A program made the position numbers and the translations under genes. Below are positions 26,936-50,529 of a stretch of 64,000 bases of DNA, one piece after another (within the stretch, counting starts at the first letter, position 1; every line of letters starts with the position of its first letter). The stretch is from an uncultured bacterium (GTDB lineage Bacteria > Oederibacteriota > Oederibacteriia > Oederibacteriales > Oederibacteriaceae). The DNA lies in NCBI GenBank assembly GCA_965112635.1, contig OZ218778.1, positions 1,600,001 through 1,664,000 of the forward strand. The letters run 5' to 3'. The notes below the pieces were generated by a model. The model was not told where the DNA came from and did not search any database. It saw nothing but the letters and a program-made list of their open reading frames with translations.

Positions 26936-27191
26936 TGGCTATTCCCTCCAAGGCTTCACATAACCAATGGAATCCCCTTTTCTTGCATTGTTTTAAAAGG
27001 TTTTTAAGAAGAAAAATATCATTGGGATTATAAAGATTGCCCGGTGTTTTGGAATTGATGCTAAGTTTTTGATGAGAGCAAGGGAGAAGACCTAAAGATA
27101 TCTTTAGTATTATGAATTTATTTCTCGTTAGCCCCAGTGATCGGGCGGCCTGCCTAGTAGTCATGGGGGTCTTTTGAATGTGTCTATGCAT
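26928..27191 (-). CDS. Small putative DNA-binding (excisionase-like) protein
   Basis: MTTRQAARSLGLTR HTH-like; overlaps both neighbours. Confidence 0.45.
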   Translation of the reverse strand: MHRHIQKTPMTTRQAARSLGLTRNKFIILKISLGLLPCSHQKLSINSKTPGNLYNPNDIFLLKNLLKQCKKRGFHWLCEALEGIANE

Positions 27192-33314: not shown

Positions 33315-36300
33315 TTGAAAGAACCAATTATTGAAAATCCGGTAATTAATTCGCCCTACGAAGAGCCCAAAAGACATTTCAAGTTCTCCGATGAGGGGAT
33401 CACCGATCAGAAAACCGAATCCCGCCGTGTTAGTGCCTATTTTGTCCCAATTGCTAAACCTAAATCCAAAGGTAAACAGCTAAATTTTGAGACTGGATGG
33501 ACACAGGACAGAGTCCAGGAAAATATATTCATCAACCGTGTCCGAGGCTGCATATCCAAATGGCGTCAGGGTGGTTATCCGGGGGTTACCAAAACTACTG
33601 CCAGACTTCTTGAACATTGGAAGAATCCAGAGAGAGACAAACGATTATTCTTCTGCCAGATCGAGGCTATGGAAACCGCGATCTATATCACTGAGGTGGC
33701 CTCCAAATACGGTGACGCTTGGATCGAGAGCGAACTCCAGACAGCCAATGAACAGGGAAATTCTGACCTCAATCGTATGGCCTTTAAAATGGCAACGGGC
33801 AGCGGTAAGACCGTGGTCATGGCCATGCTGATAGCCTGGAATGCGCTCAATAAACAAGCTAATCCTCAGGACGCCCGATACTCGGATACTTTTCTCATCG
33901 TTACGCCGGGCATCACTATCAGAGACCGTTTGCGTGTTTTGCTTCCACATGACCCGGAAAATTATTATCGCAAATGGGACATCCTGCCCGAAGACGATGC
34001 TTTGGCCTTGGGAAACGCGAAAGTATTGGTAACCAATTTTCACACCTTCCTTTATAGAGAGACTATGGATGCGTCCAAACTGGCCAAGCAGATCCTTTCA
34101 CGACATGGCCGTCCCGGAGCGTTGACCGAAACACCCGATCAGATGGTTCGCAGGGCCTGCCGTGAGTTGGGCAATAAGAAAAATATCGTGGTTATCAATG
34201 ACGAGGCGCATCACTGTTATCGCCATAAGGAAATTGAGAACCAAGAGGCGTTGGTAGGTGATGACCGTAAGGAGATGGAAAAGCGTGAGGAGGAGGCCAG
34301 GATATGGATCAATGGCCTGGAGGCAGTGAAAAATAAAATCGGTTTAAAGAGTGTTTACGACCTTTCAGCCACACCATTTTTCCTCAAAGGTTCTGGCTTT
34401 GAGGAGGGGACGCTTTTTCCCTGGGTGGTATCAGACTTCTCGCTGATTGATGCCATAGAGAGCGGCATTGTCAAAGTTCCCCGCGTTCCCGTGGCAGACG
34501 ACAGCATGACCGGGGAGATGCCGACCTATCGCAGTATTTGGTATCGGATACGGGACCATCTACCTAAAAAGGGTAGAAGGACCGAAAAAACCACAGGCGA
34601 CCCCAATCCTCCCAAAGAACTTGAGGGCGCTTTGCAGAGTTTATATGGCAACTACGAAAAGTATTATCGGGAGTGGGAGAAAAATAAAGAGGCTATCAGC
34701 CGGGGCATAACCCCGCCTGTTTTTATAGTGGTATGCAATAACACAAATGTCTCAAAGCTCGTTTACGACTATATTTCCGGCTGGGAAAAAGAGCTGAAAG
34801 ACGGCACGGTCAAGGTTGTGCCGGGCAAACTTCCTATATTTAATAACGAGGACCATGGGCAGTGGCGCGACCGACCCTACACCATCCTTATTGACAGCGA
34901 ACAATTGGAGTCAGGCGAAGCTCTTAGCTCTGAGTTCAAAAAGATAGCTGGGGCTGAAATAGATAAGTTCAAGGATGAGTACCGACAGCGGTTCCCGGGC
35001 CGGGATGTGGACCAGATAGAGGATTCGGAGATATTGCGCGAGGTTATGAACACCGTGGGCAAGGCCGGTAAATTGGGTGAGCATGTCCGTTGTGTGGTCT
35101 CAGTATCCATGTTGACTGAGGGCTGGGATGCCAATACCGTGACCCATATTTTAGGAGTCAGGGCTTTTGGGACACAGCTTCTTTGCGAGCAAGTCATCGG
35201 CCGGGGTTTGAGGCGCAGGAGTTATGCCGTAAATGGTAAGGGTATGTTTGAACCTGAATACGCCGAGGTCTATGGTGTGCCGTTCTCCTTTATTCCGTGT
35301 TCTGGTTCCAGTACGCAGATCAAATTGGGAGTTCAGCCCACGCATGTCCGCGCCTTGGAAGAGCGTATTGCTCTTGAGATCACTTTTCCCAGGGTTATGG
35401 GATATCGCTGGGATATGCCTAGCGAGAAGCTTACGGCAAAGTTTAACGAATCATCCAACCTTGCTCTTTCAACCCAGGATGTTCCTTCCTGGACCAAGAA
35501 CGAGCCTATTATTGGGGAATCATCGGTTCATAAGCTGGATGAGCTTAAAAATAGGCGTATGCAAGAGGTAGCGTTCCTTCTCGCTAAGCTGACCCTGGAA
35601 AAATACTACCGGCTGGAAAGTGATAAAAGGGATGAGAAGACCAAAGAACATAAATTTAGTTCTGATGTTAAATCATGGCTTTTCCCTCAACTGTTGGAAA
35701 TATCGCGGCAATGGCTGGATAAGTGTGTAGTCTGCAAGGACAATACCTTTCCGCAGATGCTTCTCCTGATGGAGCTGGCCCATGATGCCTCGGACAGGAT
35801 ATATCATTCCATCGTGGAGGGTATAACGGGCGAAAAAAATCTGCGGCCCATTCTCCGTCCCTATGACACCGTTGGTTCCACCCGCTATGTTGATTTTGAC
35901 ACGATAAAACCGGTTTATCCTACCAATGAAAAATACTGCCATGTCTCCCATGTGGTAACTGATACCGGGTCTTGGGAGCAAAAAATGGCTCAGGGCATAG
36001 AGGAATTGGCTGATGAGGGAATCGTAAAATGTTATGTGAAAAACCAAGGGTTTGGATTCAGGATACCCTATACACTTAGTGGGGAAGAGCATAATTACGA
36101 GCCTGATTTTATCCTTCGCATCAATGACGGACGAGGCGTGGACGATCTATTGAACCTTATCGTAGAGGTAACAGGGGAGAAAAAGAAAGACAAGGCAGCC
36201 AAGACCGCCACAGCCAGGGATTTCTGGGTCCCAGCCATTAACAATCAAGGCGGTTTTGGCCGCTGGGCATTCCTAGAGGTCACAGATCCCTGGGATGGGA

Positions 36301-36347
36301 AAAATTCTATAAAGTCAGCGATTAAGAGGACTAAATCAAATGTGTAA
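33315..36347 (+). CDS. res: Type III restriction enzyme Res subunit
   Basis: MATGSGKT, DEAHH, SAT, LTEGWD, QVIGRGLR, C-terminal PDF...IVEV nuclease. Confidence 0.9.
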   Translation: MKEPIIENPVINSPYEEPKRHFKFSDEGITDQKTESRRVSAYFVPIAKPKSKGKQLNFETGWTQDRVQENIFINRVRGCISKWRQGGYPGVTKTTARLLEHWKNPERDKRLFFCQIEAMETAIYITEVASKYGDAWIESELQTANEQGNSDLNRMAFKMATGSGKTVVMAMLIAWNALNKQANPQDARYSDTFLIVTPGITIRDRLRVLLPHDPENYYRKWDILPEDDALALGNAKVLVTNFHTFLYRETMDASKLAKQILSRHGRPGALTETPDQMVRRACRELGNKKNIVVINDEAHHCYRHKEIENQEALVGDDRKEMEKREEEARIWINGLEAVKNKIGLKSVYDLSATPFFLKGSGFEEGTLFPWVVSDFSLIDAIESGIVKVPRVPVADDSMTGEMPTYRSIWYRIRDHLPKKGRRTEKTTGDPNPPKELEGALQSLYGNYEKYYREWEKNKEAISRGITPPVFIVVCNNTNVSKLVYDYISGWEKELKDGTVKVVPGKLPIFNNEDHGQWRDRPYTILIDSEQLESGEALSSEFKKIAGAEIDKFKDEYRQRFPGRDVDQIEDSEILREVMNTVGKAGKLGEHVRCVVSVSMLTEGWDANTVTHILGVRAFGTQLLCEQVIGRGLRRRSYAVNGKGMFEPEYAEVYGVPFSFIPCSGSSTQIKLGVQPTHVRALEERIALEITFPRVMGYRWDMPSEKLTAKFNESSNLALSTQDVPSWTKNEPIIGESSVHKLDELKNRRMQEVAFLLAKLTLEKYYRLESDKRDEKTKEHKFSSDVKSWLFPQLLEISRQWLDKCVVCKDNTFPQMLLLMELAHDASDRIYHSIVEGITGEKNLRPILRPYDTVGSTRYVDFDTIKPVYPTNEKYCHVSHVVTDTGSWEQKMAQGIEELADEGIVKCYVKNQGFGFRIPYTLSGEEHNYEPDFILRINDGRGVDDLLNLIVEVTGEKKKDKAAKTATARDFWVPAINNQGGFGRWAFLEVTDPWDGKNSIKSAIKRTKSNV

Positions 36348-36987
36348 TGTGATTAAAAGTGAATCAATCACTGCTATAGCAACAGTATCTTTAGCCATAA
36401 TAGCCTATTGGCAGTTGCACAAAGCCAACCTTATTTCCAGTGTGGATTTTGTAAACAGATTGAATAAGGAATTTTTTACAGAAAAAGCATATGACATATG
36501 TAACTGCTTGGCTGATGATTTAATTGAATTTCGTTATAAATCTGAGGATTTCATTATTAAAACGAATAAAAAAAGATTGAAAGAAATGGGATTCAAAACC
36601 AATATTCTTTCCACGGAGGATGTAGACGAGGTTCTCCTGGATCACTTCGAGGATGTTGGTTATTACGAGAAGCGTGGAATTATAAAAATAGATTTTGTTT
36701 ATGAATCTTTTAGTTGGTATATAGACGAATGTGGAAAAAGTTTAGGCATCCGAAAATATATTATAAATCAGCGCAAGGAAGAAGGCTGCGAAGACCTCTA
36801 TGATAATTTTGAATATATTTATAGAAAGTGTGAAAATTATGGTTTCACAAAAAATAATCACAAATCCTTTTATTATGGATGGTTTTCTTCTTGGAAAATT
36901 TTATGGAAATTTAAATGGTGGTTTCGATACTCAATTTGCCAGAATATTTTTGGAATAAGATGGTTTCCAAAGTGGGAGGAGGAATAA
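36340..36987 (+). CDS. Membrane-anchored hypothetical protein (DUF4760-like) between res and mod
   Basis: N-terminal TM; LDHFEDVGYYEKRGII. Confidence 0.6.
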   Translation: MCNVIKSESITAIATVSLAIIAYWQLHKANLISSVDFVNRLNKEFFTEKAYDICNCLADDLIEFRYKSEDFIIKTNKKRLKEMGFKTNILSTEDVDEVLLDHFEDVGYYEKRGIIKIDFVYESFSWYIDECGKSLGIRKYIINQRKEEGCEDLYDNFEYIYRKCENYGFTKNNHKSFYYGWFSSWKILWKFKWWFRYSICQNIFGIRWFPKWEEE

Positions 36988-39654
36988 ATGCCACGGGGAA
37001 GAAAGAAAAAAATATCTATACCAATAGAGAATGTTAAACATAAAGACAAAAGGACTAATATCCCCACAAGGGAATTACAGAGTTTTGTGAAAGAGGACGA
37101 GGCTAAACCCAAAGTTATTCTCTATCCCCGTGATACTTCTCTCGATCCCCAGCTTGTTTGGAAAGGTAAAGACGAACAAGACTCCAAAGACCTGGCTGTT
37201 CCAGCGGTCCCTGTCTATATCCAGGAGAAAATCCATCCCCGCGTCATCATTGAGGACCTCAAAAAACATCAGCCCAAAGACAGCGGCCCTGTGCCACAAC
37301 TTGGCCTTTTTGGGGATTTCAACGGCCTGCCTTTTGAGGAACAGATTGATTTTTATCATCATCAAAATCACTGGACTAATCGCATGATTCTCGGTGATTC
37401 TCTTCTGGTTATGAATTCATTAGCGGAGAAGGAGGGGCTCAAAGGTAAGGTTCAAATGATTTATATTGATCCACCATATGGGATTAAATTTAACTCTAAT
37501 TGGCAGGTATCAACTCGAAAACATGATTTAAAAGATGGAAAAGTGGAAGATGCTACTCGTCAACCTGAACAGGTTAAAGCATACCGTGACTCATGGGAAC
37601 TTGGTATTCATTCATATCTTTCATATTTACGTGACAGATTTATTGTTGCTCGTGAGCATCTCACAGAATCTGGTTCGCTATTTGTTCAGATAAATTCCGA
37701 GAATAGCCACCTCGTGGCTATGGTGTTGGATGAGGTTTTTGGGAGTGATAATTTTGTTGCAAATATCATTTTCCGTAAGAAAAGTCTTCCACTGGGTGCA
37801 AAATTGCTAGAAACAATGCATGACCATATTCTATTTTATGCTAAGGATCGGAATGTGGTGAAGTATCGAGAGCTTTATGAATATATGGAAAATGTTACGG
37901 CCCATTGGCGTTTTGCTGAATTGCCTGATGGTCAGATTTTGAATATAAAGTCATCTGATTTCATGAGCAAAGAACATCCTAATGGAACACGTTATTTTAG
38001 ATCGTTTTCATTAATTGCTCCGTCGTATTCTGAAAATACTAATTTTAAATATAAATACGAGGGCCATGTTTATTCACCACCTAGTGGTGGGTCATGGGTA
38101 GTTAGCAAGGAAAAGCTAGATAGCCTTGTTAGAGCTGGAAGAATCCAAGTCGAGGGAGAAAGTTTAAGTTATAAACTTTATCACGACGATTTTCCGTTTC
38201 GTAAAATTACAAATCTTTGGTCGGATGTAGGAGTCTCATATGAAAAAATATATGCCGTTCAAACAACTCCTCAAATAATTGAGAGATGTCTTTTAATGTC
38301 TACTGATCCTGGTGATTTAGTTTTAGATCCTACTTGTGGTAGTGGTACAACGGCATATGTAGCGGAAGAGTGGGGAAGACGATGGATTACTATAGATACT
38401 TCCCGTGTTGCTGTGGCTTTAGCGAGAACACGTCTCATGGCAGCAAGATATCCATACTACATACTGACAGATTCACCAGAGGGAATTAGTAAAGAGGCAG
38501 AGGTAACTGGCAAAGTTCCCTTAGGCAGTATTAAAACAGAGAGCGATGTAAAGAAGGGTTTTGTTTATGAGCGTGTGGCTCATGTTACCCTTAAATCTAT
38601 AGCTAATAATTCCGATATTAAGGAGGGGATGAGCCGGGCTGAGGTAGATGTGGCTATTGCCAAACATGCGGATACCGAGCTTTTATACGATAAACCCTAT
38701 GAGGATAACAAACGAGTGAGGGTCAGCGGACCGTTTACTGTAGAGAGCTTATCGCCTCACCGCGTTCTTTCCTCGGATGAAGAACGGCCGGCATCTGAAA
38801 AGGGCGCAGGCGATACCAGCGGAGCTGGGCAGTTTGAGACTATGATTACGGATAACCTCAAAAAAGCCGGTGTGCAAAACACTGTCCGCAATGAACGTCT
38901 TACCTTTGACCGGCTGGAACCTTTTGCCGGTATTTATATCCATGCCGCGGGGGAATATACTGAAAACAAGATTTCCAAACGGGTTGCGGTGTGTATTGGC
39001 CCTGAACATAGCACAGTGGGGCCGGAACTCATCAAAGACGCAGCCAAGGAGGCGATGCAGGGAGTTGGATTTGACCTTTTGCTAGTCTGTGGGTTTGCCT
39101 TTGACGCCCATGCCAGCGAGACGGTAAAACAGCTTCAGCCCACAGCCGAGGTGAAGAAAGGGGTAGTGGCTGAATCCAGCAAGCAGTATGGGAAGCTGAC
39201 CGTATTGTTAGCCCGGATGAATCCTGACCTTGCTATGGGTGATGACTTGCTCAAAAAGACCGGCGCAGGGAATCTCTTTATGGTCTTTGGCGAGCCGGAT
39301 GTTGAGATTAAAAAGCAAAAGGACGGCCGTTTCATAGCGACCATCAAGGGTGTTGATGTTTACGACCCCACGACCGGACAGGTCAGAAACCATACGACTG
39401 ATGACATCGCCTGCTGGTTCATTGATACCAGTTACAACGAAGAATCCTTTTTCGTCCGTCATGCCTATTTCTGCGGAGCCGATGAGCCCTACGATAAACT
39501 CAAACGCGCCCTGCGTGCCGAGATCAACGAATCAGCCTGGTCCACGCTTTACTCTACCGAGAGCCGCCCCTTTGACCCTCCTCAAACCGGCAAAATTGCA
39601 GTAAAGGTTATCAATCATTATGGGGATGAGGTGCTAAAGGTATATAAAATTTAA
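36988..39654 (+). CDS. mod: Type III R-M Mod adenine methyltransferase
   Basis: YIDPPYG, LDPTCGSGTT, C-terminal KIAVKVINHYGDE. Confidence 0.9.
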   Translation: MPRGRKKKISIPIENVKHKDKRTNIPTRELQSFVKEDEAKPKVILYPRDTSLDPQLVWKGKDEQDSKDLAVPAVPVYIQEKIHPRVIIEDLKKHQPKDSGPVPQLGLFGDFNGLPFEEQIDFYHHQNHWTNRMILGDSLLVMNSLAEKEGLKGKVQMIYIDPPYGIKFNSNWQVSTRKHDLKDGKVEDATRQPEQVKAYRDSWELGIHSYLSYLRDRFIVAREHLTESGSLFVQINSENSHLVAMVLDEVFGSDNFVANIIFRKKSLPLGAKLLETMHDHILFYAKDRNVVKYRELYEYMENVTAHWRFAELPDGQILNIKSSDFMSKEHPNGTRYFRSFSLIAPSYSENTNFKYKYEGHVYSPPSGGSWVVSKEKLDSLVRAGRIQVEGESLSYKLYHDDFPFRKITNLWSDVGVSYEKIYAVQTTPQIIERCLLMSTDPGDLVLDPTCGSGTTAYVAEEWGRRWITIDTSRVAVALARTRLMAARYPYYILTDSPEGISKEAEVTGKVPLGSIKTESDVKKGFVYERVAHVTLKSIANNSDIKEGMSRAEVDVAIAKHADTELLYDKPYEDNKRVRVSGPFTVESLSPHRVLSSDEERPASEKGAGDTSGAGQFETMITDNLKKAGVQNTVRNERLTFDRLEPFAGIYIHAAGEYTENKISKRVAVCIGPEHSTVGPELIKDAAKEAMQGVGFDLLLVCGFAFDAHASETVKQLQPTAEVKKGVVAESSKQYGKLTVLLARMNPDLAMGDDLLKKTGAGNLFMVFGEPDVEIKKQKDGRFIATIKGVDVYDPTTGQVRNHTTDDIACWFIDTSYNEESFFVRHAYFCGADEPYDKLKRALRAEINESAWSTLYSTESRPFDPPQTGKIAVKVINHYGDEVLKVYKI

Positions 39655-39688
39655 GTTTAAATAATTAGGCATTAAAGGATATAAATTC

Positions 39689-41323
39689 ATGGCAATAGAT
39701 AAATTAAAAATTGATTACATGATCGGTTTGATTCGGAAGAATTTTCCAAATTGGAATGATTTCAACGATAAGGATTTTATTCGTGCGGAAAGGGAATATA
39801 AAGTAAAAGCTATTGAGATAGCGCAGGAATTATTTAGTGAACAAAAATTAAGAATATTGGTAAAAAAAGGTAAATATGATGAAATTTTTAAGGATATTAG
39901 AAAAATTGCCGTAGTCATGAAAAATTTACTTTTTCTGAAGATACCAAGGGCTGGGGATTTGAATATCCTTGAAAATAGAAAACTTAATAAACCAGAATTT
40001 TGTGATAAATTCTACGACTTGCTTTATGGCAATGGCTTTACTCAAGAAAGGCTTAATAGATTCATTCTTTATCTTCGTAATAATGAACTTCCACACAAAT
40101 TAAATTTTGCAACTTTTTATCTTTTCGTAACAAATCCCAGAGATGAAATTTTTTTGAAAACTAATGCGCAAAAATGGTTTCTAAGGCTAATAGGTGACGA
40201 GGATGCCCTTGAGAAAAGAATAAATGATCCAGTTCTAACTTTTATTAGGTTTAAGGAGCACTGCAAAAAACTATTTAATGAGCTTAGAGATAGAAAGCCT
40301 CAGGATATGACCGATATTCAGTCCTTTATATGGGTCAGTTATGAAACAGATAAGGGTAAATATAAAGTTGGAATTAAAAAGGACAAAAAGGGCAGCAATG
40401 AAAAGCGGGTTTCTTATACTGGATATTGGACCTTTATTAATCAACCTAAGACATGGCCATTTGATAAATATATGGATGGGAAAAAGGTAGATTCAGATAT
40501 TTATCCAAAGAGTATGTGGTATGTGGGCCGTTATTTAAAAGATTTTAAGATAGGTGATTGGGTTTTATTAAGGATTTGTCCTGACAAAAGAAATAAAGAT
40601 GAACTAGGGGGAAAAGAACGGCTAGAACCAGGTGTATATGCAATTGCAAAAATAACGAAAAGTATTTCCCCAAGAGATATGGCCAGCAAATCAAAGAGCA
40701 AAAAACCACTGGAAATAGAGTTTGTTAACTGCTTTTTAAATACCCCCATTTTAATTGACCAAATTAAGAGCAATCCAGTTCTTAAACAAGATAAATACTT
40801 AGTAAGCCCACACCAGATATCGGCCATTCCACTCAGGGAGGATGCTTTTAGGGAAATATGTAGTTTGGTGGGTTTTGAGTATGACGAAGAGCCTGATATT
40901 GAACCAACAGAGAAAGAACAATCTGATTTTGATAGCAAGATTCTTAAAGATGCAAAAATAAATTCACCAGAAGAGGCAAAGAAACTTATTGTCCAGATAT
41001 CTAAGGAACTTAAAAATAAACCGGTTGAGGTCCGGACTAAAATTGCAAAGATGTTATCTAGAAATCCAAAGTTAGCCAAACTAGTAAAAGAAAGTGCTGG
41101 ATATGTTTGTCAGGTATGCAAAGCAGACCCCTTTATCAAAAAAAATGGTGGTCTTTATGCCGAGGCTCATCACATCAACGAATTAGCAAAGACAAAAATT
41201 GATAATCCTGAATCCATGTTATGTGTATGTCCTACTTGCCATAGGGTAATGCATTATGGGAATGAAGATGCTAAGAAGAAAAGAGAAAGTCTAAAAAACC
41301 TTAGAATTGATGACGCGTCTTGA
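39689..41323 (+). CDS. EVE/PUA-like + HNH endonuclease (type IV restriction candidate)
   Basis: YWTFINQPKTW...KIGDWVLL...GVYAIAKI; CQVC...EAHH...CPTCHRVMH. Confidence 0.75.
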   Translation: MAIDKLKIDYMIGLIRKNFPNWNDFNDKDFIRAEREYKVKAIEIAQELFSEQKLRILVKKGKYDEIFKDIRKIAVVMKNLLFLKIPRAGDLNILENRKLNKPEFCDKFYDLLYGNGFTQERLNRFILYLRNNELPHKLNFATFYLFVTNPRDEIFLKTNAQKWFLRLIGDEDALEKRINDPVLTFIRFKEHCKKLFNELRDRKPQDMTDIQSFIWVSYETDKGKYKVGIKKDKKGSNEKRVSYTGYWTFINQPKTWPFDKYMDGKKVDSDIYPKSMWYVGRYLKDFKIGDWVLLRICPDKRNKDELGGKERLEPGVYAIAKITKSISPRDMASKSKSKKPLEIEFVNCFLNTPILIDQIKSNPVLKQDKYLVSPHQISAIPLREDAFREICSLVGFEYDEEPDIEPTEKEQSDFDSKILKDAKINSPEEAKKLIVQISKELKNKPVEVRTKIAKMLSRNPKLAKLVKESAGYVCQVCKADPFIKKNGGLYAEAHHINELAKTKIDNPESMLCVCPTCHRVMHYGNEDAKKKRESLKNLRIDDAS

Positions 41324-42330: not shown

Positions 42331-43765
42331 GATTATGTCAAGTTTTCGGGTGTAAGTTGTTAAGTCCACGGGTAGTAGGTTAAGCAACATTTAGCAAGCC
42401 TTCCTGAACCAGATCACCTCCTTGAGATTTCCAGAGTTTTCTTTTAGACCAATTATCTTCCTGAGTGGTAGAAACAGACCAGACGATCTTAGCGACCTCC
42501 AATTCGGAGTGCATGGTGCCGGCAGCACGGGTGCGCCGTTTGATCTCGGCGATAAAGCGTTCGATGAGATTGCTGGAGCGGAGAGTGCGCCAGACATGCT
42601 GGGGTTCGTTCATGAAGGTGGTGAGGTTGTCGAACCTATCGAGAGCCATAGCCGTAGCTCTAGGATAGAGTTTCATCCAGCGAGCTTGGAGGCGGCCAAA
42701 GGCCTGGAGAGCCAGTTTGCGGGAATCGGCCCAATAGATAGCTTTGAAATCGTTAAGGAAGGCACCCCAGTCACGGCGAGGCATAATGGCTCTGAGGTTT
42801 CGGATCTTGTGGACCAGGCAGAGCTGGTGAGGGACAGCCAGGAGGTTTTTGACGGCCTGCTCAATGGCCTTGTGTTCATCGGAGATGACGAGCCTGAGGG
42901 TGTTGCGGTTAAGGCCTCTTTTGAGGAGGTCATTGATAAAAGCCTGCCAGGAGTCCAAGGACTCTCTATCGCCGAGAAGGAAACCCAGGACATGGCGATT
43001 GCCAAAGGAATCCATGCCTAGGGCGAGCAATAGAGCTTGTTTGGAGGTAAAACCAGGTCTTCTGACAGGCAGGTAGGCGGCGTCCAGGAGCAGGTAGGTG
43101 ATGTTGGGAGGAATGGGACGATTCATCCACTGACGGATGGCTGGCTCCAAGGCGTTGGTGAGAGTGGAGACGGTGGAGTGAGAGAGCTTTGTGCCCAAAG
43201 CGGCATTTATCTCAGCGGCGGTAGAGCGAGTGGCAGCGCCTTTGAGCCAGAAGCGGATGGCGAGGAAGGAAGCCAGGCCTTTTCCAGCTTGTTTGAGGGC
43301 GGTAAGCAAGGGCGAGTGAAGGGACCCCTGGCGTAGAGCTGGTTTGTGCAGAAAAAGTCTGCCAAAAAAGCCGGGGACAGAGGTGGATTTAAAACCGTTT
43401 CTTTTAGGGCTGTTTTCAAGGCGTTCATAAGGCTGACGGCCCAAAAACTCGTCCCTTTCAGCCTCCAGTTGAATATCTAAAGCCTGGGCAATGATGGCAT
43501 TGACCTCCTGGCCAATTACTTCCAGAGCGACACCGGGCTGTGCGATCTTTCTGACTTTTTCTCTGATTTTCTGATTCGTATAAATCTCAATTCTTTGGGA
43601 TAATGACTTCACGGGTGTAGACCTCCTTTTATTTTGGGTTTGGTGACCTAAGCAATCACCTAGTCTACGCCCGTGGACTTATTTTTGGGGCCGCAAGGTT
43701 AGATTGCTGCAATCTAACCTTGCCTTTCCCCTCGTTGAAGTTACACCCAGGAATGGTACACAACC
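42331..43765 (-). mobile_element. IS256-family insertion sequence (1435 bp) with 9-bp TSD TTATTGTTA
   Basis: Imperfect 25-bp IRs ending gggtgtaa; TSD at 42322-42330 and 43766-43774. Confidence 0.9.
42380..43612 (-). CDS. IS256 transposase
   Basis: RNGF, LLDA, VISDEH, QLCLVHKIRN, SSNLIERFIAEIKRR. Confidence 0.93.
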   Translation of the reverse strand: MKSLSQRIEIYTNQKIREKVRKIAQPGVALEVIGQEVNAIIAQALDIQLEAERDEFLGRQPYERLENSPKRNGFKSTSVPGFFGRLFLHKPALRQGSLHSPLLTALKQAGKGLASFLAIRFWLKGAATRSTAAEINAALGTKLSHSTVSTLTNALEPAIRQWMNRPIPPNITYLLLDAAYLPVRRPGFTSKQALLLALGMDSFGNRHVLGFLLGDRESLDSWQAFINDLLKRGLNRNTLRLVISDEHKAIEQAVKNLLAVPHQLCLVHKIRNLRAIMPRRDWGAFLNDFKAIYWADSRKLALQAFGRLQARWMKLYPRATAMALDRFDNLTTFMNEPQHVWRTLRSSNLIERFIAEIKRRTRAAGTMHSELEVAKIVWSVSTTQEDNWSKRKLWKSQGGDLVQEGLLNVA

Positions 43766-44362: not shown

Positions 44363-45571
44363 ATGGGGATGAAAAGAGATGATATGGCAAAACTTTTTGA
44401 TGAAATGCCGAGGCTGGATTTAAGCGACTTCCAATACGGCGAAAGTACTTTCGGATATTTGAACAAATCTGCAAAACCTGTGATAGAAAAAGCACGAAAC
44501 ACCATTTTGGAGTGGTTTAAATATTACCCGGAGGAAAGAAAAGAAGAATTTGTTTCTCGTTTTAGGGATGAGAATCATCATCTTTCTGCCTTCTATGAGC
44601 TTTTTACCCATGAGCTATTAAGAAATTTAGGTAGTAAAATAAAATTTCCCCAAGCAGGAAAATTCAAAAAGAATAACGTCCCTGATTTTCTAGTCGACGA
44701 TCCTTATGGGAAAGAATTCGTTCTTGAGGCCTGTTTGGTAGCTAGAGAATCAGATAAAAAGAAAGCTGGTGGCAAGATCCGAAATCAGGTCTTGAGGTTG
44801 ATTGATAATTATGATTCCCCGAATTTTTCTTTTAGACTATCCGAAATAGGATATCCTGAGAAAGCAGTGTCATTGGCTAAAATTGAAGCCAGTCTGAAAG
44901 AATTTGTAGATAAATTAGATTACCAGGAAATTATGAAAGCGTGTAAGGAGAAAAGAGATAGGGTTATTCCTAGGTTAGATATTTGTGAGGGAAAATGGAC
45001 ATTGCGTGTGTACCCCATCCCTAGAGGGAGAGTTAAATTAGATAGAAAACAACGCAAGGGTGTCGGAATACTCTCCCAGGGCGTAAGTTGGGCCGGTGAT
45101 ATTCGGATGAAAATATTAGATAAATTGAAAAAAAAGTCGTCAAAATACGGTGATATTAAAAAGCCCTATGTCATTGCTATCAATCTATTTTGTGACGGTG
45201 TAGACCAAATTGAGGAGGCTTTATTTGGGGAAGAAGCCACGGCCCCGAGAATAAATTATCGAACGAAAGATACTGAATTACTCAATTTTAGAAAAAATAA
45301 CGGTTTTTGGGGGCCGGATAGAAAAAAGAATAAAAGAGTGAGCGCAGTTCTAGTAACCTCTTATTTAGGCCCTGGATATGTTTCAAATGTCTATGCCTAT
45401 TTATACCACTGCCCGTATGCTGCGTACCCCTTAGACACGACTTTAATAAAACTGCCTCAAGAAAAATGGCATATTGAGAAAAATGGACAAATAATATTTG
45501 AACATGTAGAGGGAGCGGAATTAAGTCAGTTTGTAAAATATCCGCTTTGGGAATATTCCCAATTTCATTGA
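44363..45571 (+). CDS. PD-(D/E)XK nuclease-like hypothetical protein
   Basis: FYEL...PDFLV...VLEA; KKKSSKY...PYVIAIN. Confidence 0.55.
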   Translation: MGMKRDDMAKLFDEMPRLDLSDFQYGESTFGYLNKSAKPVIEKARNTILEWFKYYPEERKEEFVSRFRDENHHLSAFYELFTHELLRNLGSKIKFPQAGKFKKNNVPDFLVDDPYGKEFVLEACLVARESDKKKAGGKIRNQVLRLIDNYDSPNFSFRLSEIGYPEKAVSLAKIEASLKEFVDKLDYQEIMKACKEKRDRVIPRLDICEGKWTLRVYPIPRGRVKLDRKQRKGVGILSQGVSWAGDIRMKILDKLKKKSSKYGDIKKPYVIAINLFCDGVDQIEEALFGEEATAPRINYRTKDTELLNFRKNNGFWGPDRKKNKRVSAVLVTSYLGPGYVSNVYAYLYHCPYAAYPLDTTLIKLPQEKWHIEKNGQIIFEHVEGAELSQFVKYPLWEYSQFH

Positions 45572-45586
45572 AATAAGGAGGGCAAA

Positions 45587-46462
45587 ATGAATAATTTAAA
45601 ATTTAATGCAACATTAATGACTTCCCATCGGAATAAATTGGGTTATAAGCCAAAGGTTGAGGACATGTTAGCTCACCTTGAATATTTTCAAAATAAACCT
45701 CTTATTAACAAGGACCATGATATGACTAAAGAACCGATTGGAAGAGTAATAGAGGCTCAACTAACATCAATTGAAGATGGAAAAGAAGCAAAAATTGAGG
45801 GCGTTGTTGAGATTTTTGCAAATGGGTGTGACCCTAAACAAATAGAAAAAGAAATACTGGGAAAGGGATTCAGTCCGTCATTTCAAGACGGAGATTTCAC
45901 ACTTTATCCACAAGGTAATCAGGAATTTACCAATCCCATACAAATTGAATTTGACGCCTATGCAGCAAGCGATATTCAACTTTATTTTCAAGGGAAAAAG
46001 TGGGCAGAAAAGCTTAAATGCCCCATCACGTTTATTCGGGTCCGTCGTCATGCTGCTGAGGGTGTGGGTGTATGGATTGCATTTCAGGTCGGGGCCTATT
46101 TCTTTAAGAAAATATTGGATGACATCGGTTTGTATGAATGGTTAAGAGATGAATTCGTAAAATTAGGACAAGCTAATAAAGATGGTAAGGAAATTAGAAT
46201 CCGTATTGAAGGAGCAAGTGGGCCCCAAGAAACTCCTAATAAAGTAGATGTTTACTTTAGGGGAACAGAGGGTGACCTACAAAAATATTTTGTTGATCCT
46301 CAAACAATAAATTGGCTGAAAGAAAGATGTAATGAGACTGTGCAAAAGACTGAACAAAAAGCACACAAGATTTATTCATTTAACCCCCAATTAAATAATT
46401 TTATTGAAGTGAAATTAACCGAAATAGAGAATCCTAGCCATATTATTGATCAGTATAGGTAA
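45587..46462 (+). CDS. Hypothetical protein with prohead-protease-like N-terminus
   Basis: PLINKDHD...PIGRV...GFSPSF; hydrophobic helix in C-terminal half. Confidence 0.5.
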   Translation: MNNLKFNATLMTSHRNKLGYKPKVEDMLAHLEYFQNKPLINKDHDMTKEPIGRVIEAQLTSIEDGKEAKIEGVVEIFANGCDPKQIEKEILGKGFSPSFQDGDFTLYPQGNQEFTNPIQIEFDAYAASDIQLYFQGKKWAEKLKCPITFIRVRRHAAEGVGVWIAFQVGAYFFKKILDDIGLYEWLRDEFVKLGQANKDGKEIRIRIEGASGPQETPNKVDVYFRGTEGDLQKYFVDPQTINWLKERCNETVQKTEQKAHKIYSFNPQLNNFIEVKLTEIENPSHIIDQYR

Positions 46463-46571
46463 AAACTAAACCAAAAGGCAAAAATGTAATTGCTTTATTT
46501 AGCACATTTATAGATAATCAGCCTAACTTAAATAAAGGGATTTGTTACTAAACTCTAGGGATTTCAACTAT

Positions 46572-47057
46572 ATGCCAACGCAACCAATAGAAGAGCAGAA
46601 AACAGAAGATCTTTTGGGAAAAATTAAAACTAAATATTACGAGAAGGCTCTAGAAAATTATCTTTGCTATCTGTCAGAAAATGAAAATAGACGATATAAT
46701 ACAAAAATATCCCGCTTATATTATGCTTTATACCTTGCATGTAAGGGAAATTTATTCATCAATAGACAATATGGGCCGAATGAAAATATAGACGAAAAAA
46801 ATGGACGGCCTGACGAATGGATAAATCACCATGAAATACATGTAAAGATTAATCAAAAATATCCTAGTGACAAAGAACTTCAAACAAGGTTAGTCTATTA
46901 CCCTACAGTTGTTGATTTGCGGCATAGAGCCGATTATTACCGCAGACATGTTTCAATGGATAGAAGCGATATTCAAACAGTGTTAAAGGCCGAAGAATTA
47001 ATAAAACTAATTTCAGAAAGATCATACAAGGAAAAATATGAACAACCTCAAAGTTGA
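46572..47057 (+). CDS. HEPN-domain protein (putative toxin)
   Basis: SRLYYALY...H...LRHRADY, COG1895/UPF0332-type HEPN pattern. Confidence 0.75.
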   Translation: MPTQPIEEQKTEDLLGKIKTKYYEKALENYLCYLSENENRRYNTKISRLYYALYLACKGNLFINRQYGPNENIDEKNGRPDEWINHHEIHVKINQKYPSDKELQTRLVYYPTVVDLRHRADYYRRHVSMDRSDIQTVLKAEELIKLISERSYKEKYEQPQS

Positions 47058-47655
47058 TAACGAAATTTCCGAGAAGCTGACCAATATTTGTGAACTTATC
47101 CAAGCAGAATTTCCCAATGGGGTTGTGTTGGCTGATGAGGGAAAATATCTAGATTTTTACAGAATATTGGTAAGAAATATTAGCGAATCCGAAGAATCTA
47201 AATATTGGAAATTGTATGAAAAACTTATGATTGAATTTGGACTTAAACAGAATTTACCATTACTCATATCATTAGCCGAAGGATTTCAACCGGTTTCTAA
47301 GGAAGAGGTAATTTGGGAAAACATTATTGCTGATAAATCACACATTCAAGTAAACTATGACGCTTTTTCACCTTCTTTCGTTATGGATTCTTTTATAAAA
47401 GAATCCATAATAATTAACAAAAGTCTCTATGAATTGAGTATTGACGATTTACCAGCATCATATTTTGATTTATTGCATAAGCCAAAAATATTTTATGTCA
47501 GTAATCCAGTTCTCGGTATAACAAGCGGTGCGGTAATAGAGTTAAAATCGAATTCGTTTTATACCGAACCAAGTTATCCTATGCCAATTAACTGTAATGA
47601 TATTACTTCTAATCAAGGGCTCGCATCAAATCAAGAGCTCGCACTGGCGGCTTAA
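47038..47655 (+). CDS. Putative antitoxin with long ChAD-like tail ending in ssrA-like ASNQELALAA
   Basis: Overlaps HEPN and SecB genes; tail sequence seen directly. Confidence 0.6.
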   Translation: MNNLKVDNEISEKLTNICELIQAEFPNGVVLADEGKYLDFYRILVRNISESEESKYWKLYEKLMIEFGLKQNLPLLISLAEGFQPVSKEEVIWENIIADKSHIQVNYDAFSPSFVMDSFIKESIIINKSLYELSIDDLPASYFDLLHKPKIFYVSNPVLGITSGAVIELKSNSFYTEPSYPMPINCNDITSNQGLASNQELALAA

Positions 47656-48125
47656 TGGATAAAACAAAACAACCGGGGATAAAATTCTCGTCAATTTATT
47701 TAAAATCCGTTCAATTTGAAGTCTTGACTGAGACTTTCAAAAATGAAAAGGGATTGCAAGCATCCTTTGGTTTCCAAGGTTCTGAAAAGATATCAGAAGA
47801 TAAAAAGCATTTAATGGTTGAACTAGGAATAAAAATTAACGAAGAAAAAAAGGAGGGAGCACCATTCTTTCTCTTTGCTAATTTTGTTGGGCATTTCCAA
47901 ACAATGGACAATGAATCAAACCTTCCTCTTGAAGACTTCGCTAAAAAAAATGCTTTTGCAATCATGCTGCCTTATATTAGAGAATTTGTTTCAAATATTA
48001 CTACTCGTACTCCGTATCCCCCTCTTATGATTGACCCAATAAACATTATGGCTCTTTTAGAAGATCAAATAAAGAAACAGAATATTGATAATAATAACCA
48101 ATCTGAAAATCAAAACAAAATATGA
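47655..48125 (+). CDS. secB: SecB-like chaperone
   Basis: NAFAIMLPYIREFVSNITTRTPYPPLMIDPINI SecB signature. Confidence 0.85.
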   Translation: MDKTKQPGIKFSSIYLKSVQFEVLTETFKNEKGLQASFGFQGSEKISEDKKHLMVELGIKINEEKKEGAPFFLFANFVGHFQTMDNESNLPLEDFAKKNAFAIMLPYIREFVSNITTRTPYPPLMIDPINIMALLEDQIKKQNIDNNNQSENQNKI

Positions 48126-48137
48126 ACATTTAAAATC

Positions 48138-48159
48138 GGCACCGAATAATATTTCGGTG
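48138..48159. terminator. Perfect inverted repeat GCACCGAA-N6-TTCGGTGC between convergent genes (terminator or recombinase site)
   Basis: 8-bp stem, 6-nt spacer. Confidence 0.45.
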
Positions 48160-48187
48160 CATAATTTAAGTTTCTAGCAAATCTAAC

Positions 48188-48754
48188 CTACAATTCATTT
48201 ACTGCTCTCTTTAATTGTTGAAAACCCACGCCAATATATTTCCTCGTGGTTGATATATCTGTATGGCCAAGGAGCTCCTGAATGACGGGAAGGTGTACTC
48301 CTTTTTCTGCGAGTCTGGTACCAAAGGTTTTACGAAGAGTATGGCTGGAGAGCTTTCCCATTAGACCTGCCTTGCCGAAGATCCGATACAACAGACGGTT
48401 CACGTGGCGTGGATCAAGGTGCCCGTGGTTCCGTCCAGGGAACAGGTGATCTTCAGGGGTAACGGTTTTATTTTTATTCCGACCATTTCTACGCATCATC
48501 AGAATAGCCTTCTTAGCATTCATGTTTATGGGAATAGCCCTTGCCTTGTTGTTTTTCGTCTCACTTCGTCTCAGATAGAGCAGGGGAGGAACTTGGTTGT
48601 TCTGCCACACGTCCTGCCAGCGAAGGGAGAGTAGCTCACCGACGCGTAGTCCAAGATTGATTCCCAAGAGAACCATTGATCGTTCCCTAGTATCACTGCA
48701 TGCCCGTAATGTCTTTCTGATCTCGCCCTTAGTAAGTGGCCTGGCTCCTTTCAT
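48188..48754 (-). CDS. Small tyrosine recombinase (catalytic domain only)
   Basis: GLRVGEL, TK, HTLRKT, LGH...TRKY. Confidence 0.9.
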   Translation of the reverse strand: MKGARPLTKGEIRKTLRACSDTRERSMVLLGINLGLRVGELLSLRWQDVWQNNQVPPLLYLRRSETKNNKARAIPINMNAKKAILMMRRNGRNKNKTVTPEDHLFPGRNHGHLDPRHVNRLLYRIFGKAGLMGKLSSHTLRKTFGTRLAEKGVHLPVIQELLGHTDISTTRKYIGVGFQQLKRAVNEL

Positions 48755-48944: not shown

Positions 48945-50180
48945 ATGGACGAACCATTTATATTTTTTGAGCAGCAAGCATATAAATTTAGGGAAAAGTT
49001 GGATTTACCCACTGAATTTATTGGTGAAGCCATAGATATATTAAGAAATGCATTTGGTGAGGAATGGATAAGAACAAGAGCAAATTCAAAAGATAAATCA
49101 ATCGCATTGCCCTTAAGGGATCATCCAATAGGTGAGTATTTTTCAACCCCTTCCGAATCACAAATTGTTGGAGCTTTAGAGCTTGCTGTTTATTTAAAAC
49201 GATTGATGAATGTAAAGAAAATAGAAAAAGTTATAACCCAAATGAAAGATAAGTTTTATCCACATCACCTTCAATTGGCATTTGGGTATAGATTTCTTCG
49301 TTGTGGTGCAACTGAATTAGAGTTTGAGCCGGAGGCTCTCAGCGGACGCTTTGGCGATATATTTTTTAAGATTGATGGCAAACCAATTATGGTTGAGTGC
49401 TATGTCCCACATATTCAAACAGTAGATACATCTAGAGAATTTCATTATTCAACAGGACCAATATTTAAATCTATTAAAGATGGTAAGAAAAGGATTTGTA
49501 TTCATTTAGTTAAATCAATTACCCCAGAGGATAGAAAACGGATACAAACTTTAATTATTAATGCCATTAGCAGTTCAAGTAACGATCAAATTATTGAATT
49601 AAAAGATGAAGCAGCAACTATTTCTATAGAAGATATTTCCTTTCTGAAGGAAGATAGCGATTTTTCCGAACCTGGAAGCCCCCCAATGAAGCTGTATGGA
49701 GATGCAGATTGGGGGGTGAATGAACAGAGAATTGCAAAAGAGCAAATACCCGATGTCCGATTGGGTACCGCCCCGAGAAATATATTGAGCCGAATATTTG
49801 TTTGGAAAGCACCGCAAGAAAAAAACAATGTTGAGATCGAAGAAAGGATTAAGGAATTAGAAAAAAAGATAAAGGACAAATTAGCTCAAACAAAACATAA
49901 TGACGGCGCGGGAAGGTTTTTAATTATAAATATTCCTGAGGCCCTCGACCTAAATAGTAAAACATTCAAGATAGTTAAGTGTTTAAATGAGGAAATTATT
50001 CGTAAATGCAAGAATATGGCAGGAATGATATTGACTCGACGAATATGGACAGATAAAAATAGATATATTCATGGCGGTATGTTGATGGAAGGGCATCCCC
50101 AGTATCGTTTTATAAATACATTCTATGATAAGTTGAATTTATTTGAACGGGGAAATGACATTATTAAAGATTATAAATAA
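48945..50180 (+). CDS. PD-(D/E)XK nuclease-like hypothetical protein
   Basis: GDIFFKIDGKPIMVEC; KDKLAQ...FLIINI. Confidence 0.5.
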   Translation: MDEPFIFFEQQAYKFREKLDLPTEFIGEAIDILRNAFGEEWIRTRANSKDKSIALPLRDHPIGEYFSTPSESQIVGALELAVYLKRLMNVKKIEKVITQMKDKFYPHHLQLAFGYRFLRCGATELEFEPEALSGRFGDIFFKIDGKPIMVECYVPHIQTVDTSREFHYSTGPIFKSIKDGKKRICIHLVKSITPEDRKRIQTLIINAISSSSNDQIIELKDEAATISIEDISFLKEDSDFSEPGSPPMKLYGDADWGVNEQRIAKEQIPDVRLGTAPRNILSRIFVWKAPQEKNNVEIEERIKELEKKIKDKLAQTKHNDGAGRFLIINIPEALDLNSKTFKIVKCLNEEIIRKCKNMAGMILTRRIWTDKNRYIHGGMLMEGHPQYRFINTFYDKLNLFERGNDIIKDYK

Positions 50181-50202
50181 AAAAAATTAAAGGTGGTAAC
50201 GC

Positions 50203-50529
50203 ATGGCTACCAAAAAATCATATCCCAATGATTTTACTAAGAGGAAGATTGAAGCTTATTTTCTAACACCAATACCAGACAAAGTTCGTAACGAAGTGTT
50301 GGAATGCCCTGGGGGATACATCCTCCAGGAAGTCAGACCTCATTGGAGGGAGCAAAGTCGGGTTACCCGGCATCCCTTTGCCAAGATGATTTATGTGGAT
50401 AAGACAGATGAGTGGAAAGTTTGTTGGCAACGGGCTAATGGAGATTGGAATCTACTTCATACGCTCAAGACCTTGGATGAAGTTCTGGTATTTATCAATT
50501 CCAATCCCAATGGTTGCTTTTTTGGATGA
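50203..50529 (+). CDS. DUF3024-like protein
   Basis: EVRPHW...PFAKMIY...WKVCWQRANGDW...NPNGCFFG. Confidence 0.75.
   Translation: MATKKSYPNDFTKRKIEAYFLTPIPDKVRNEVLECPGGYILQEVRPHWREQSRVTRHPFAKMIYVDKTDEWKVCWQRANGDWNLLHTLKTLDEVLVFINSNPNGCFFG

Follow-up and report, generated by a model that had tools for sequence, protein, structure and literature searches.

A HEPN protein, an antitoxin ending in a copy of its host's tmRNA tag and a SecB-like chaperone: a probable undescribed family of toxin-antitoxin-chaperone modules

In toxin-antitoxin-chaperone (TAC) systems, a toxin-antitoxin module is placed under the control of a dedicated SecB-like chaperone. As far as the accessible texts go, TACs of the HigBA, HicAB and MqsRA type have been described (Bordes et al., 2016), and five antitoxin communities were distinguished, HigA, MqsA, HicB, MqsA-like and HTH-like (helix-turn-helix), some with toxins of "unknown function" (Sala, 2013). 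In the available parts of the work on Mycobacterium tuberculosis HigBA1-SecB(TA) and on the HigBA, MqsRA and HicAB TACs, the antitoxin carries a chaperone-addiction (ChAD) extension that is missing from two-gene homologues, and in HigA1 a hydrophobic C-terminal ClpX degron (Val-Ala) lies inside the chaperone-bound region. According to the accessible portion of a more recent study of CmdTAC (PD-T4-9) from Escherichia coli, CmdA has a small N-terminal part followed by a long tail ending in Ala-Ala, which is a ClpXP degron; CmdTA toxicity is abolished by AA-to-DD substitution or by deletion of clpX or clpP, and ClpX recognition of the ssrA tag, added by transfer-messenger RNA (tmRNA), depends chiefly on its terminal Ala-Ala-COOH (Mets et al., 2024, preprint). 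Here, we describe a three-gene operon that resembles these systems and contains a HEPN protein. It lies in a 64,000-nt window of an uncultured Oederibacteriota bacterium (contig OZ218778.1, positions 1,600,001 to 1,664,000); all positions below are numbered in this window, which is the whole stretch presented.

The first gene (T; 46572..47057, plus strand), read from ATG to stop, encodes 161 aa and would be the toxin, a putative HEPN protein of the AF0298/UPF0332 type. The second (A; 47038..47655, plus strand) encodes a 205-aa candidate antitoxin of a new family, and the third (C; 47655..48125, plus strand) a 156-aa dedicated SecB-like chaperone. T and A share 20 nt, and the stop codon of A and the start codon of C are fused in TAATG. 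An alternative TTG start at 46542 would lengthen T to 171 aa; its relatives align from the ATG. Within A, residues 1-84 (47038..47289, plus strand) form the putative toxin-neutralizing module, residues 85-197 (47290..47628, plus strand) are the presumed ChAD region, and the last eight codons (47629..47652, plus strand) encode NQELALAA, identical to the end of the host's own tmRNA tag and presumably a ClpXP degron. The three overlapping genes and the TAC architecture had been proposed by a sequence-only reading of this DNA, and both stand, the latter with the order of the genes and with two-gene relatives that lack the tail together with SecB. Overall, the operon is probably a tripartite TAC module of an undescribed family.

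Several likenesses and differences place this locus among the known systems. As in CmdTAC, the genes are ordered toxin, antitoxin, SecB-like chaperone, and the antitoxin joins a small N-terminal domain to a long tail with Ala-Ala at its end. Unlike in CmdTAC, the toxin belongs to the HEPN type and is not an ADP-ribosyltransferase, the N-domain of A (about 80 aa, alpha/beta-looking) represents a new family, and the tail copies the whole host tag and not just -AA; neither T nor A corresponds to CmdT or CmdA or matches any PADLOC model, and the chaperone alone matches PD-T4-9. A dedicated SecB and a hydrophobic C-terminal degron inside a chaperone-bound region are features shared, at least by analogy, with HigBA1-SecB(TA). 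However, the toxin and antitoxin families differ from those of the HigBA, MqsRA and HicAB TACs, whose antitoxin communities are, in the published text available, DNA-binding and none of them HEPN-associated, whereas A has no recognizable DNA-binding domain. With MNT-HEPN pairs, including the type VII HepT-MntA system and the AF0298/UPF0332 HEPN proteins, the operon shares a T of the AF0298-like clade, encoded elsewhere beside MNT genes, and a conserved Tyr close to the Arg motif, as at the HepT AMPylation site. In contrast with these pairs, the partner is not a nucleotidyltransferase (A lacks GS...DxD), the toxin gene comes first, a chaperone and a degron are added, and A presumably neutralizes by binding and not by AMPylation. 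Finally, A ends in the same eight residues as the host tmRNA tag but, unlike the tag, this copy is encoded in a gene and not added by trans-translation, uses other codons and is presumably kept hidden by SecB until it is required.

The T-A-SecB gene order recurs. It was found at 19 loci in two phyla and a metagenome: in the host genome (G000), G091, G098, metagenome contig L004 and 15 loci of the second phylum. A search for HEPN-X-secB triplets with LAA ends had been suggested by the sequence-only reading; among the 17 aligned A proteins, 16 end in -AA, nine of these in -LAA, and one ends in -VA. In the host's phylum, two further triplets (L006 and L007) are found among the six SecB-positive genomes of 99, together with non-HEPN TACs of the MqsR/MqsA type (L009, confirmed with Pfam), of the HicAB type (L010) and with a zinc-ribbon antitoxin without Pfam class (L008). 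Outside this set, triplets were seen on L004, the one locus returned by a metagenome scan with the T profile, and in a metagenome-assembled genome of Cloacimonadota (L001, the same place as L057). In the second phylum, a SecB profile retrieved 25 loci in 23 of 232 genomes, with a T-family gene upstream in 14 of the 25; the middle gene was recognized by a five-sequence A model in ten of these 14, and the other four align with the family. Conversely, the T profile gave 18 matches in 17 of the 232 genomes, 15 of them followed by A and SecB, two by a tail-less A without SecB and one belonging to an ordinary MNT-HEPN pair. The distribution is sporadic (3/99 and 16/232 genomes). Of 17 loci examined, 14 have a called SecB open reading frame (ORF), and in 10 of these A and C share 1 or 4 nt.

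The two-gene loci are informative. Both (L111 and L113) are in genome G200, where A measures 98 or 83 aa and no SecB follows; the T gene of L113 is a 68-aa fragment. A consists of an N-domain of about 80 aa and, in the 17 triplets, a variable tail of 54-121 aa. This C-terminal extension is present solely where SecB follows and is missing from the chaperone-less A proteins, the relation that the accessible text of Bordes et al. (2016) reports for HigA, MqsA and HicB. Because tail-less two-gene versions exist, the N-domain can be regarded as the antitoxin proper, and the tail and SecB as an add-on. Binding of SecB to the extension would follow by analogy with these systems. The tail-less two-gene and tailed three-gene versions together offer a natural experiment on the acquisition of chaperone addiction.

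A second recurrent TAC type was observed in the second phylum (L062, L064, L066, L067, L069, L071, L074, L076 and L077). Its first gene, where present on the contig, encodes 107-143 aa, often starting with MAIYCI, and belongs to no Pfam family in the two cases tested (L062 and L066). An antitoxin of 134-323 aa, then SecB, come after it; two HTH_3 domains were found in the two antitoxins tested, and the -AA end in six of the nine loci.

The identity of C is straightforward. It matches Pfam PF02556 (1.8e-14; 54.3 bits for a cut-off of 26), and its best PADLOC model is PD-T4-9_C (2.9e-17), which we take to be the CmdC chaperone; that PD-T4-9 is CmdTAC also follows from the papers. It is below every NCBIfam cut-off for housekeeping SecB (best 47.4 bits for 180), and both this low score and its toxin-antitoxin operon context set it apart from housekeeping SecB. 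Moreover, C is the sole match to the SecB profile in the host, and 93 of the 99 genomes of the phylum have none. A TAC would have a SecB-like gene downstream of its antitoxin within one operon, as is the case here, and the early description of C as a dedicated SecB-like chaperone is borne out. In a SecB tree, C groups with that of L004 and with that of the non-HEPN TAC of genome G036 (96/98; L008 has a long branch). Joint transfer of tail and SecB was considered and rejected, the tails without their last nine residues showing no significant similarity: eight of nine pairs fell within shuffles, and the score of L005 with L057 was reached by 7 of 300.

The assignment of T required family-level comparisons. 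The strings SRLYYA and RHRADY that had suggested a HEPN protein are present, T has no match in Pfam, NCBIfam, PADLOC or PHROGs, and single-sequence searches with T and A in a word-indexed set of 5.8 billion proteins returned self-matches only. Four relatives of T (34-41% identity) were retrieved when 1.84 billion representatives were searched in full with HMMER; they have in common with T the string SRLYY, a His in the middle and L-R-x-[KR]-[AS]-D-Y. The first profile tests were below threshold (PDB 9xbd, E 0.15; PF05168 in one of five members, 0.032). As a comparison set, 31 PF05168 genes were gathered from the host's phylum; an MNT gene adjoins 26 of them (27 regular-expression matches, one false). 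One member, L043 (80.9 bits), lies directly 3' of a classic MNT gene and shares all three motifs with T; the solved structures nearest to it are AF0298/2hsb, 9xbd and 9xbc. With hhalign, the window branch of T alone (five sequences) aligns with L043 at 92.9% (E 3.8e-7) with the motifs in register, while 20 of 20 column shuffles gave at most 2.6%. With 17 T-family members, the values are 95.0% for L043 and 89.7% for the whole PF05168 set. A 20-member T profile searched in the PDB retrieves 9xbd over its full length (1.9e-7; titled "HEPN domain-containing protein"), 9xbc (4e-6), a retron HEPN (0.005) and 2hsb (0.05), and PF05168 is found in 14 of the 20 members (E up to 1, best 1e-6), the window T not among them. 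Two matches of the T profile named "UPF0332 family" (P0010 and P0011) were set aside: they are close kin of the L001 row in the query alignment and are thus no independent evidence for the window branch, for which the comparison of the branch alone with L043 was used instead.

Residue conservation points in the same direction. In the 20 very divergent members, Y51, H86, R117 and Y122 never vary, and K25, R48, Y50 and D121 hardly do; R48, Y50, Y51, H86, R117, D121 and Y122 are candidate active-site residues. The R-polar-x3-H RNase motif of HepT is not found in T. The AF0298/UPF0332-like pattern is: the motif Arg is kept (R117), the motif His is absent, H86 is located N-terminal to it, and the fifth residue after the Arg is an invariant Tyr. 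For the AF0298-like HEPN-T family, the available text of Anantharaman et al. (2013; PMC3710099) describes precisely a kept Arg, an absent motif His and a second conserved His, N-terminal, which could form an alternative active site. The structures 9xbc and 9xbd, both recent and of a single HEPN protein, differ by a Tyr-to-Phe change at the position of Y122 in T (R-x-x-S-D-Y); the depositors evidently deem that Tyr important. By profile and motif, the T family belongs to the AF0298/UPF0332-type HEPN clade. The class normally paired with MNT, named for T beforehand, is therefore the one supported by the L043 match and by the frequent MNT neighbors of its relatives.

The C-terminal end of A reads ...GLASNQELALAA. 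The single host tmRNA found with ARAGORN encodes the tag ANQELALAA, which A matches exactly in its last eight residues. None of the host's other stop-to-stop frames (25,590 in all, at least 50 aa each) has such a run: theirs are of 0-4, the next longest being four residues in two frames. The -AA end occurs in 170 frames and the -LAA end in 17. Compared with the tag-coding stretch of the tmRNA, 5 of 24 bases differ, all of them synonymous, which indicates that the peptide, and not the DNA, is what is conserved. The G+C content at third codon positions is 0.50 in the last 12 codons of A, 0.26 in the rest of the operon and 0.63 in the host, a hint, from 12 codons, that the 3' end of A was shaped in a GC-richer genome such as that of the host. 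In the host genome, clpP and clpX form an operon (283 and 661 bits); SspB was not found there. The ...LALAA end has the sequence character of the hydrophobic C-terminal degrons of TAC antitoxins, and A would be degraded by ClpXP via this tag copy. A tail mimicking the tmRNA tag had been proposed with the E. coli tag as a model; the likeness goes beyond the E. coli pattern, since it is the host's own tag that is copied.

Do the tails track the tags of their hosts in general? The comparison comprised 21 tail/tag pairs from 19 TAC-bearing genomes and 5000 permutations. It left out L004, for which there is no genome, G091, G155, G227, G178, G156 and G320, for which no tag was then at hand, and G100 (L085), whose 16-residue ARAGORN tag is implausible, starting far downstream of the usual resume site, and is probably a miscall. 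Over all 21 pairs, identities at positions 3-8 from the end number 37, for 25.9 (sd 2.9) in permutations, a value reached in 3 of 5000; these permutation figures overstate independence, since kin share both tags and systems. The second phylum alone gives 72/5000 for identities and 630/5000 for BLOSUM scores, and the HEPN-type pairs alone (13 pairs) 203/5000 and 1029/5000. The strong cases are G000 (8/8), G036 (8/9) and G113, with an exact YSLAA suffix. In G036, it is the unrelated zinc-ribbon TAC antitoxin (L008, 893-1480) that ends in ADEELALAA, for a host tag ADEQLALAA. Among tags obtained later, outside the permutation test, A of G242 matches at 6 of 9 positions, and those of G178, G156 and G227 at 3, 2 and 2 of 9. 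Thus, the C-terminal -AA is a rule of the A family, full-tag copying is real in a few systems, and a general tracking of host tags by tails is no more than suggested.

The best-surviving alternative concerns the meaning of this identity. The end of A may be a generic ClpX degron, with tag identity beyond -LAA functionless and the six further matching residues due to ancestry or drift. Most members indeed share just -AA or -LAA with their host tag, the exact suffix being at most two residues in 9 of the 21 pairs; SspB, the adaptor by which upstream tag residues are read in E. coli, is absent from the host; and when G000 and G036 are withdrawn, the own-tag excess becomes weak (26 identities for 21.1 permuted, 151/5000; BLOSUM, 500/5000). 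However, the eight-residue suffix is the only one of its kind in the host frames, the base differences are all silent, which speaks for selection on the peptide, two further antitoxins (in G036, for a different tag, and in G242) copy most of their own host's tag, and the overall excess is rarely met by permutation. On balance, a generic degron appears somewhat unlikely, without being far-fetched. About equally tentative is the broader proposal that a TAC antitoxin becomes adapted to its particular host by taking over the complete tmRNA tag, so that toxin release would be tied to trans-translation and ssrA proteolysis beyond a reading of -LAA by ClpX. If this were true, the antitoxin would compete with ssrA-tagged proteins and be handled like them, including by host tag-specific adaptors, and the tail would be re-tuned to a new host after horizontal transfer, as the host-like composition of its last 12 codons could reflect. 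In any case, the operon is an especially clean natural case of an encoded host ssrA tag as a candidate conditional degron, with a second, unrelated antitoxin copying a different tag. It raises the testable question of whether upstream tag residues matter in hosts without SspB, and whether tails are re-tuned after transfer.

By analogy with published TACs, a mechanism can be proposed. T would be an RNase using R117 and the upstream H86 in place of the canonical Rx4-6H motif. With its N-domain of about 80 aa, A would bind T directly and thereby neutralize it, and the extension of A would depend on co-translated C, which would hold the extension and shield the end. When C is unavailable, for instance because phage proteins titrate it, as they do in CmdTAC and HigBAC, the tag copy would be exposed to ClpXP; degradation of A would then free T, which would stop growth, presumably by acting on RNA.

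The setting of the operon counts in favor of such a TAC. The host genome is a single contig of 2.876 Mb with 51.3% GC, and the operon is located within a 33-40% GC stretch of it, in a low-GC defense island. Its defense-type neighbors are a ResIII helicase, a type III methyltransferase (869 bits) and an EVE/type IV restriction protein; other neighbors are a HEAT-repeat protein, a Mutator-family transposase, a protein with a PD-T7-5-like N-terminus and, on the opposite strand, a fragment corresponding to an integrase catalytic domain. The transposase and the catalytic-domain-only integrase on the flanks suggest a decayed mobile island. It can then be asked whether the module is mainly an addiction or stabilization element of a genomic island. 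The low-GC island beside the transposase and the integrase fragment, the sporadic distribution of the triplet and the fact that TACs were, in the accessible literature, first described outside phage defense are consistent with this idea. On the other hand, the neighbors are restriction-modification and other defense-type genes, and the two TACs tested against phages, CmdTAC and HigBAC, do defend according to the published text available. Addiction as the main role is thus rather improbable, and the two roles are not exclusive.

Another possibility is a direct descent from MNT-HEPN (type VII) pairs, the N-domain of A being a degenerate, catalytically dead MNT that neutralizes by binding and not by AMPylation. 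In the initial reading, the operon was derived from such a pair, with no visible GSxxDxD motif in A. The motif is indeed absent from 17 of 17 A proteins; the derivation fared less well. In its favor are the MNT genes adjoining most PF05168 loci, L043 included, the invariant Tyr five residues after the Arg of T, the site of the Tyr-to-Phe change between 9xbc and 9xbd, and an early profile comparison in which a five-sequence alignment of the A N-domain was collinear with the MNT profile (77%, E 2.1e-5; controls at most 1.1%) with an eight-residue gap at the GS...DxD loop. However, this signal drops to 5.7% with four rows and to 0.4% with 17 sequences, and the MNT origin inferred from it was accordingly given up. 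The A profile finds no nucleotidyltransferase in the PDB or Pfam, and gene order is reversed relative to MNT-HEPN pairs. Moreover, A and MNT coexist at locus L060 (genome G227; 49-1929), where a true MNT (95.2%) and a HEPN protein with the canonical R-N-x3-H are followed, after a 300-nt gap, by an A-family protein (95.5%, E 1.6e-8 to the family; it ends in -AS) and SecB. Descent from an MNT is therefore unlikely.

The layout of L060, a single locus, argues instead that A is a separate invention able to accompany HEPN toxins of two classes; at L060, either a HepT-type toxin is served by an A-SecB module or two systems lie side by side. As a family, A holds together, the group of the host's phylum aligning with that of the second phylum at 95% (E 3.8e-8). 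The penultimate Ala is the sole invariant residue of the 17 members, the last Ala being nearly so. Its N-domain has no match in Pfam, NCBIfam, PADLOC, PHROGs or the PDB (best PDB E 0.5; no Pfam family recurs), and a profile search in Pfam revealed no recognizable DNA-binding domain. That this N-domain is a new antitoxin fold neutralizing two different HEPN classes is, taken jointly with the tuning of tails to host tags, a speculative view to which we give a minor share of our confidence.

Several observations weigh against a HEPN-type TAC at this locus. The window T has no Pfam match at E up to 10, so that its HEPN assignment comes from comparisons between profiles and at the level of the family. 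In place of the canonical Rx4-6H motif stands R-x4-Y (R-x-x-[AS]-D-Y), and RNase activity of the AF0298/UPF0332-type clade is, as far as the literature search goes, no more than predicted. SecB is disrupted or truncated in 3 of the 19 triplets (L075, L079 and L081); cells can thus survive the loss of C, at least once the system has decayed. Viral contigs yielded no relative of T or SecB, and tblastn with T and A gave no match in plasmid and phage collections. The tails vary in sequence from one system to the next, and a conserved ChAD motif was not found in them. The aromatic enrichment ascribed to the tail by the sequence-only reading did not hold either: the aromatic fraction is 0.11 in both tail and N-domain of the window A, and in the family it averages 0.10 in the tail and 0.165 in the N-domain. 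That T is a non-catalytic, binding or regulatory HEPN protein, and the operon a chaperone-dependent regulatory or decaying module and no toxin system, as the missing canonical motif, the non-catalytic HEPN domains without motif mentioned in the available text of Anantharaman et al. (2013; PMC3710099) and the lack of experimental toxicity for the clade in the literature searched might suggest, is very unlikely given eight polar or aromatic positions (near-)invariant in 20 members, including R117 and H86 of the proposed alternative active site, and toxin-antitoxin hallmarks such as strict T-A-(C) coupling, translational overlaps, tail-less two-gene versions and a degron-ended partner.

The TAC principle and the -AA degron, as in CmdA, are already known. 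As far as the literature search goes, what is new is a HEPN toxin in a TAC, the family to which A belongs and the copying of an entire host tag. No published HEPN TAC was found in a full-text literature search, in agreement with the initial statement that none was known to be characterized; survey supplements, outside its reach, may hold unnamed members. In the parts available, the Enterobacteriaceae-limited survey of HigBAC and CmdTAC does not mention HEPN and gives Ala-Ala as the degron of CmdA (Mets et al., 2024, preprint), neither HEPN nor ssrA appears in Vassallo et al. (2024), SecB is absent from Anantharaman et al. (2013; PMC3710099) and HEPN from Sala (2013). The same search returned no paper describing 9xbd and 9xbc, and none joining UPF0332, HEPN and toxin. 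T and A match no model of PADLOC-DB v2.0.0 (2023), the sole defense catalogue searched, so current defense annotation probably misses the family. If the operon is the TAC module that we favor, HEPN nucleases, among the commonest toxin domains of prokaryotic conflict systems, would join the short list of those under SecB-chaperone control, and they would bring with them a new, uncharacterized antitoxin domain.

Downstream of C, a perfect 8-bp inverted repeat with a 6-nt loop (48139..48160, without strand assignment) lies between the convergent SecB and integrase genes and is a possible terminator; it was not called in a terminator scan, which missed the hairpin because its T-run is weak. A promoter scan gave seven sites for 9.0 expected. 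The integrase (48188-48754, minus strand) is a 188-aa protein made of the catalytic domain alone (PF00589, 117 bits). On the other side, the Mutator-family transposase (42380-43612, minus strand; 238.5 bits) follows a type III-like restriction-modification block (33315-41323) composed of a ResIII helicase of 1010 aa, a 215-aa ORF and a methyltransferase of 888 aa (PADLOC, 868.9 bits). The methyltransferase gene is followed by one encoding 544 aa, whose product has an EVE domain and, at its C-terminus, a type IV methyl-directed restriction part. The tRNA nearest to the operon region is at 25133.

Other genes of the window deserve mention. Directly upstream of the operon (44363-46462), two genes of 402 and 291 aa are separated by 15 nt; the first has the PD-T7-5-like N-terminus (PADLOC, 6.6e-13; phrog_8571, 1.2e-09), the second has no match, and the pair is possibly another two-gene defense system. 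At 27184-29259 on the minus strand, a 691-aa ORF without Pfam family weakly matches, in PADLOC, the reverse transcriptase (RT)-associated DnaG-like protein of DRT systems (6.4e-10). Finally, at 48945-50529, a 411-aa ORF without family in Pfam, NCBIfam, PADLOC or PHROGs precedes a DUF3024 protein of 108 aa.

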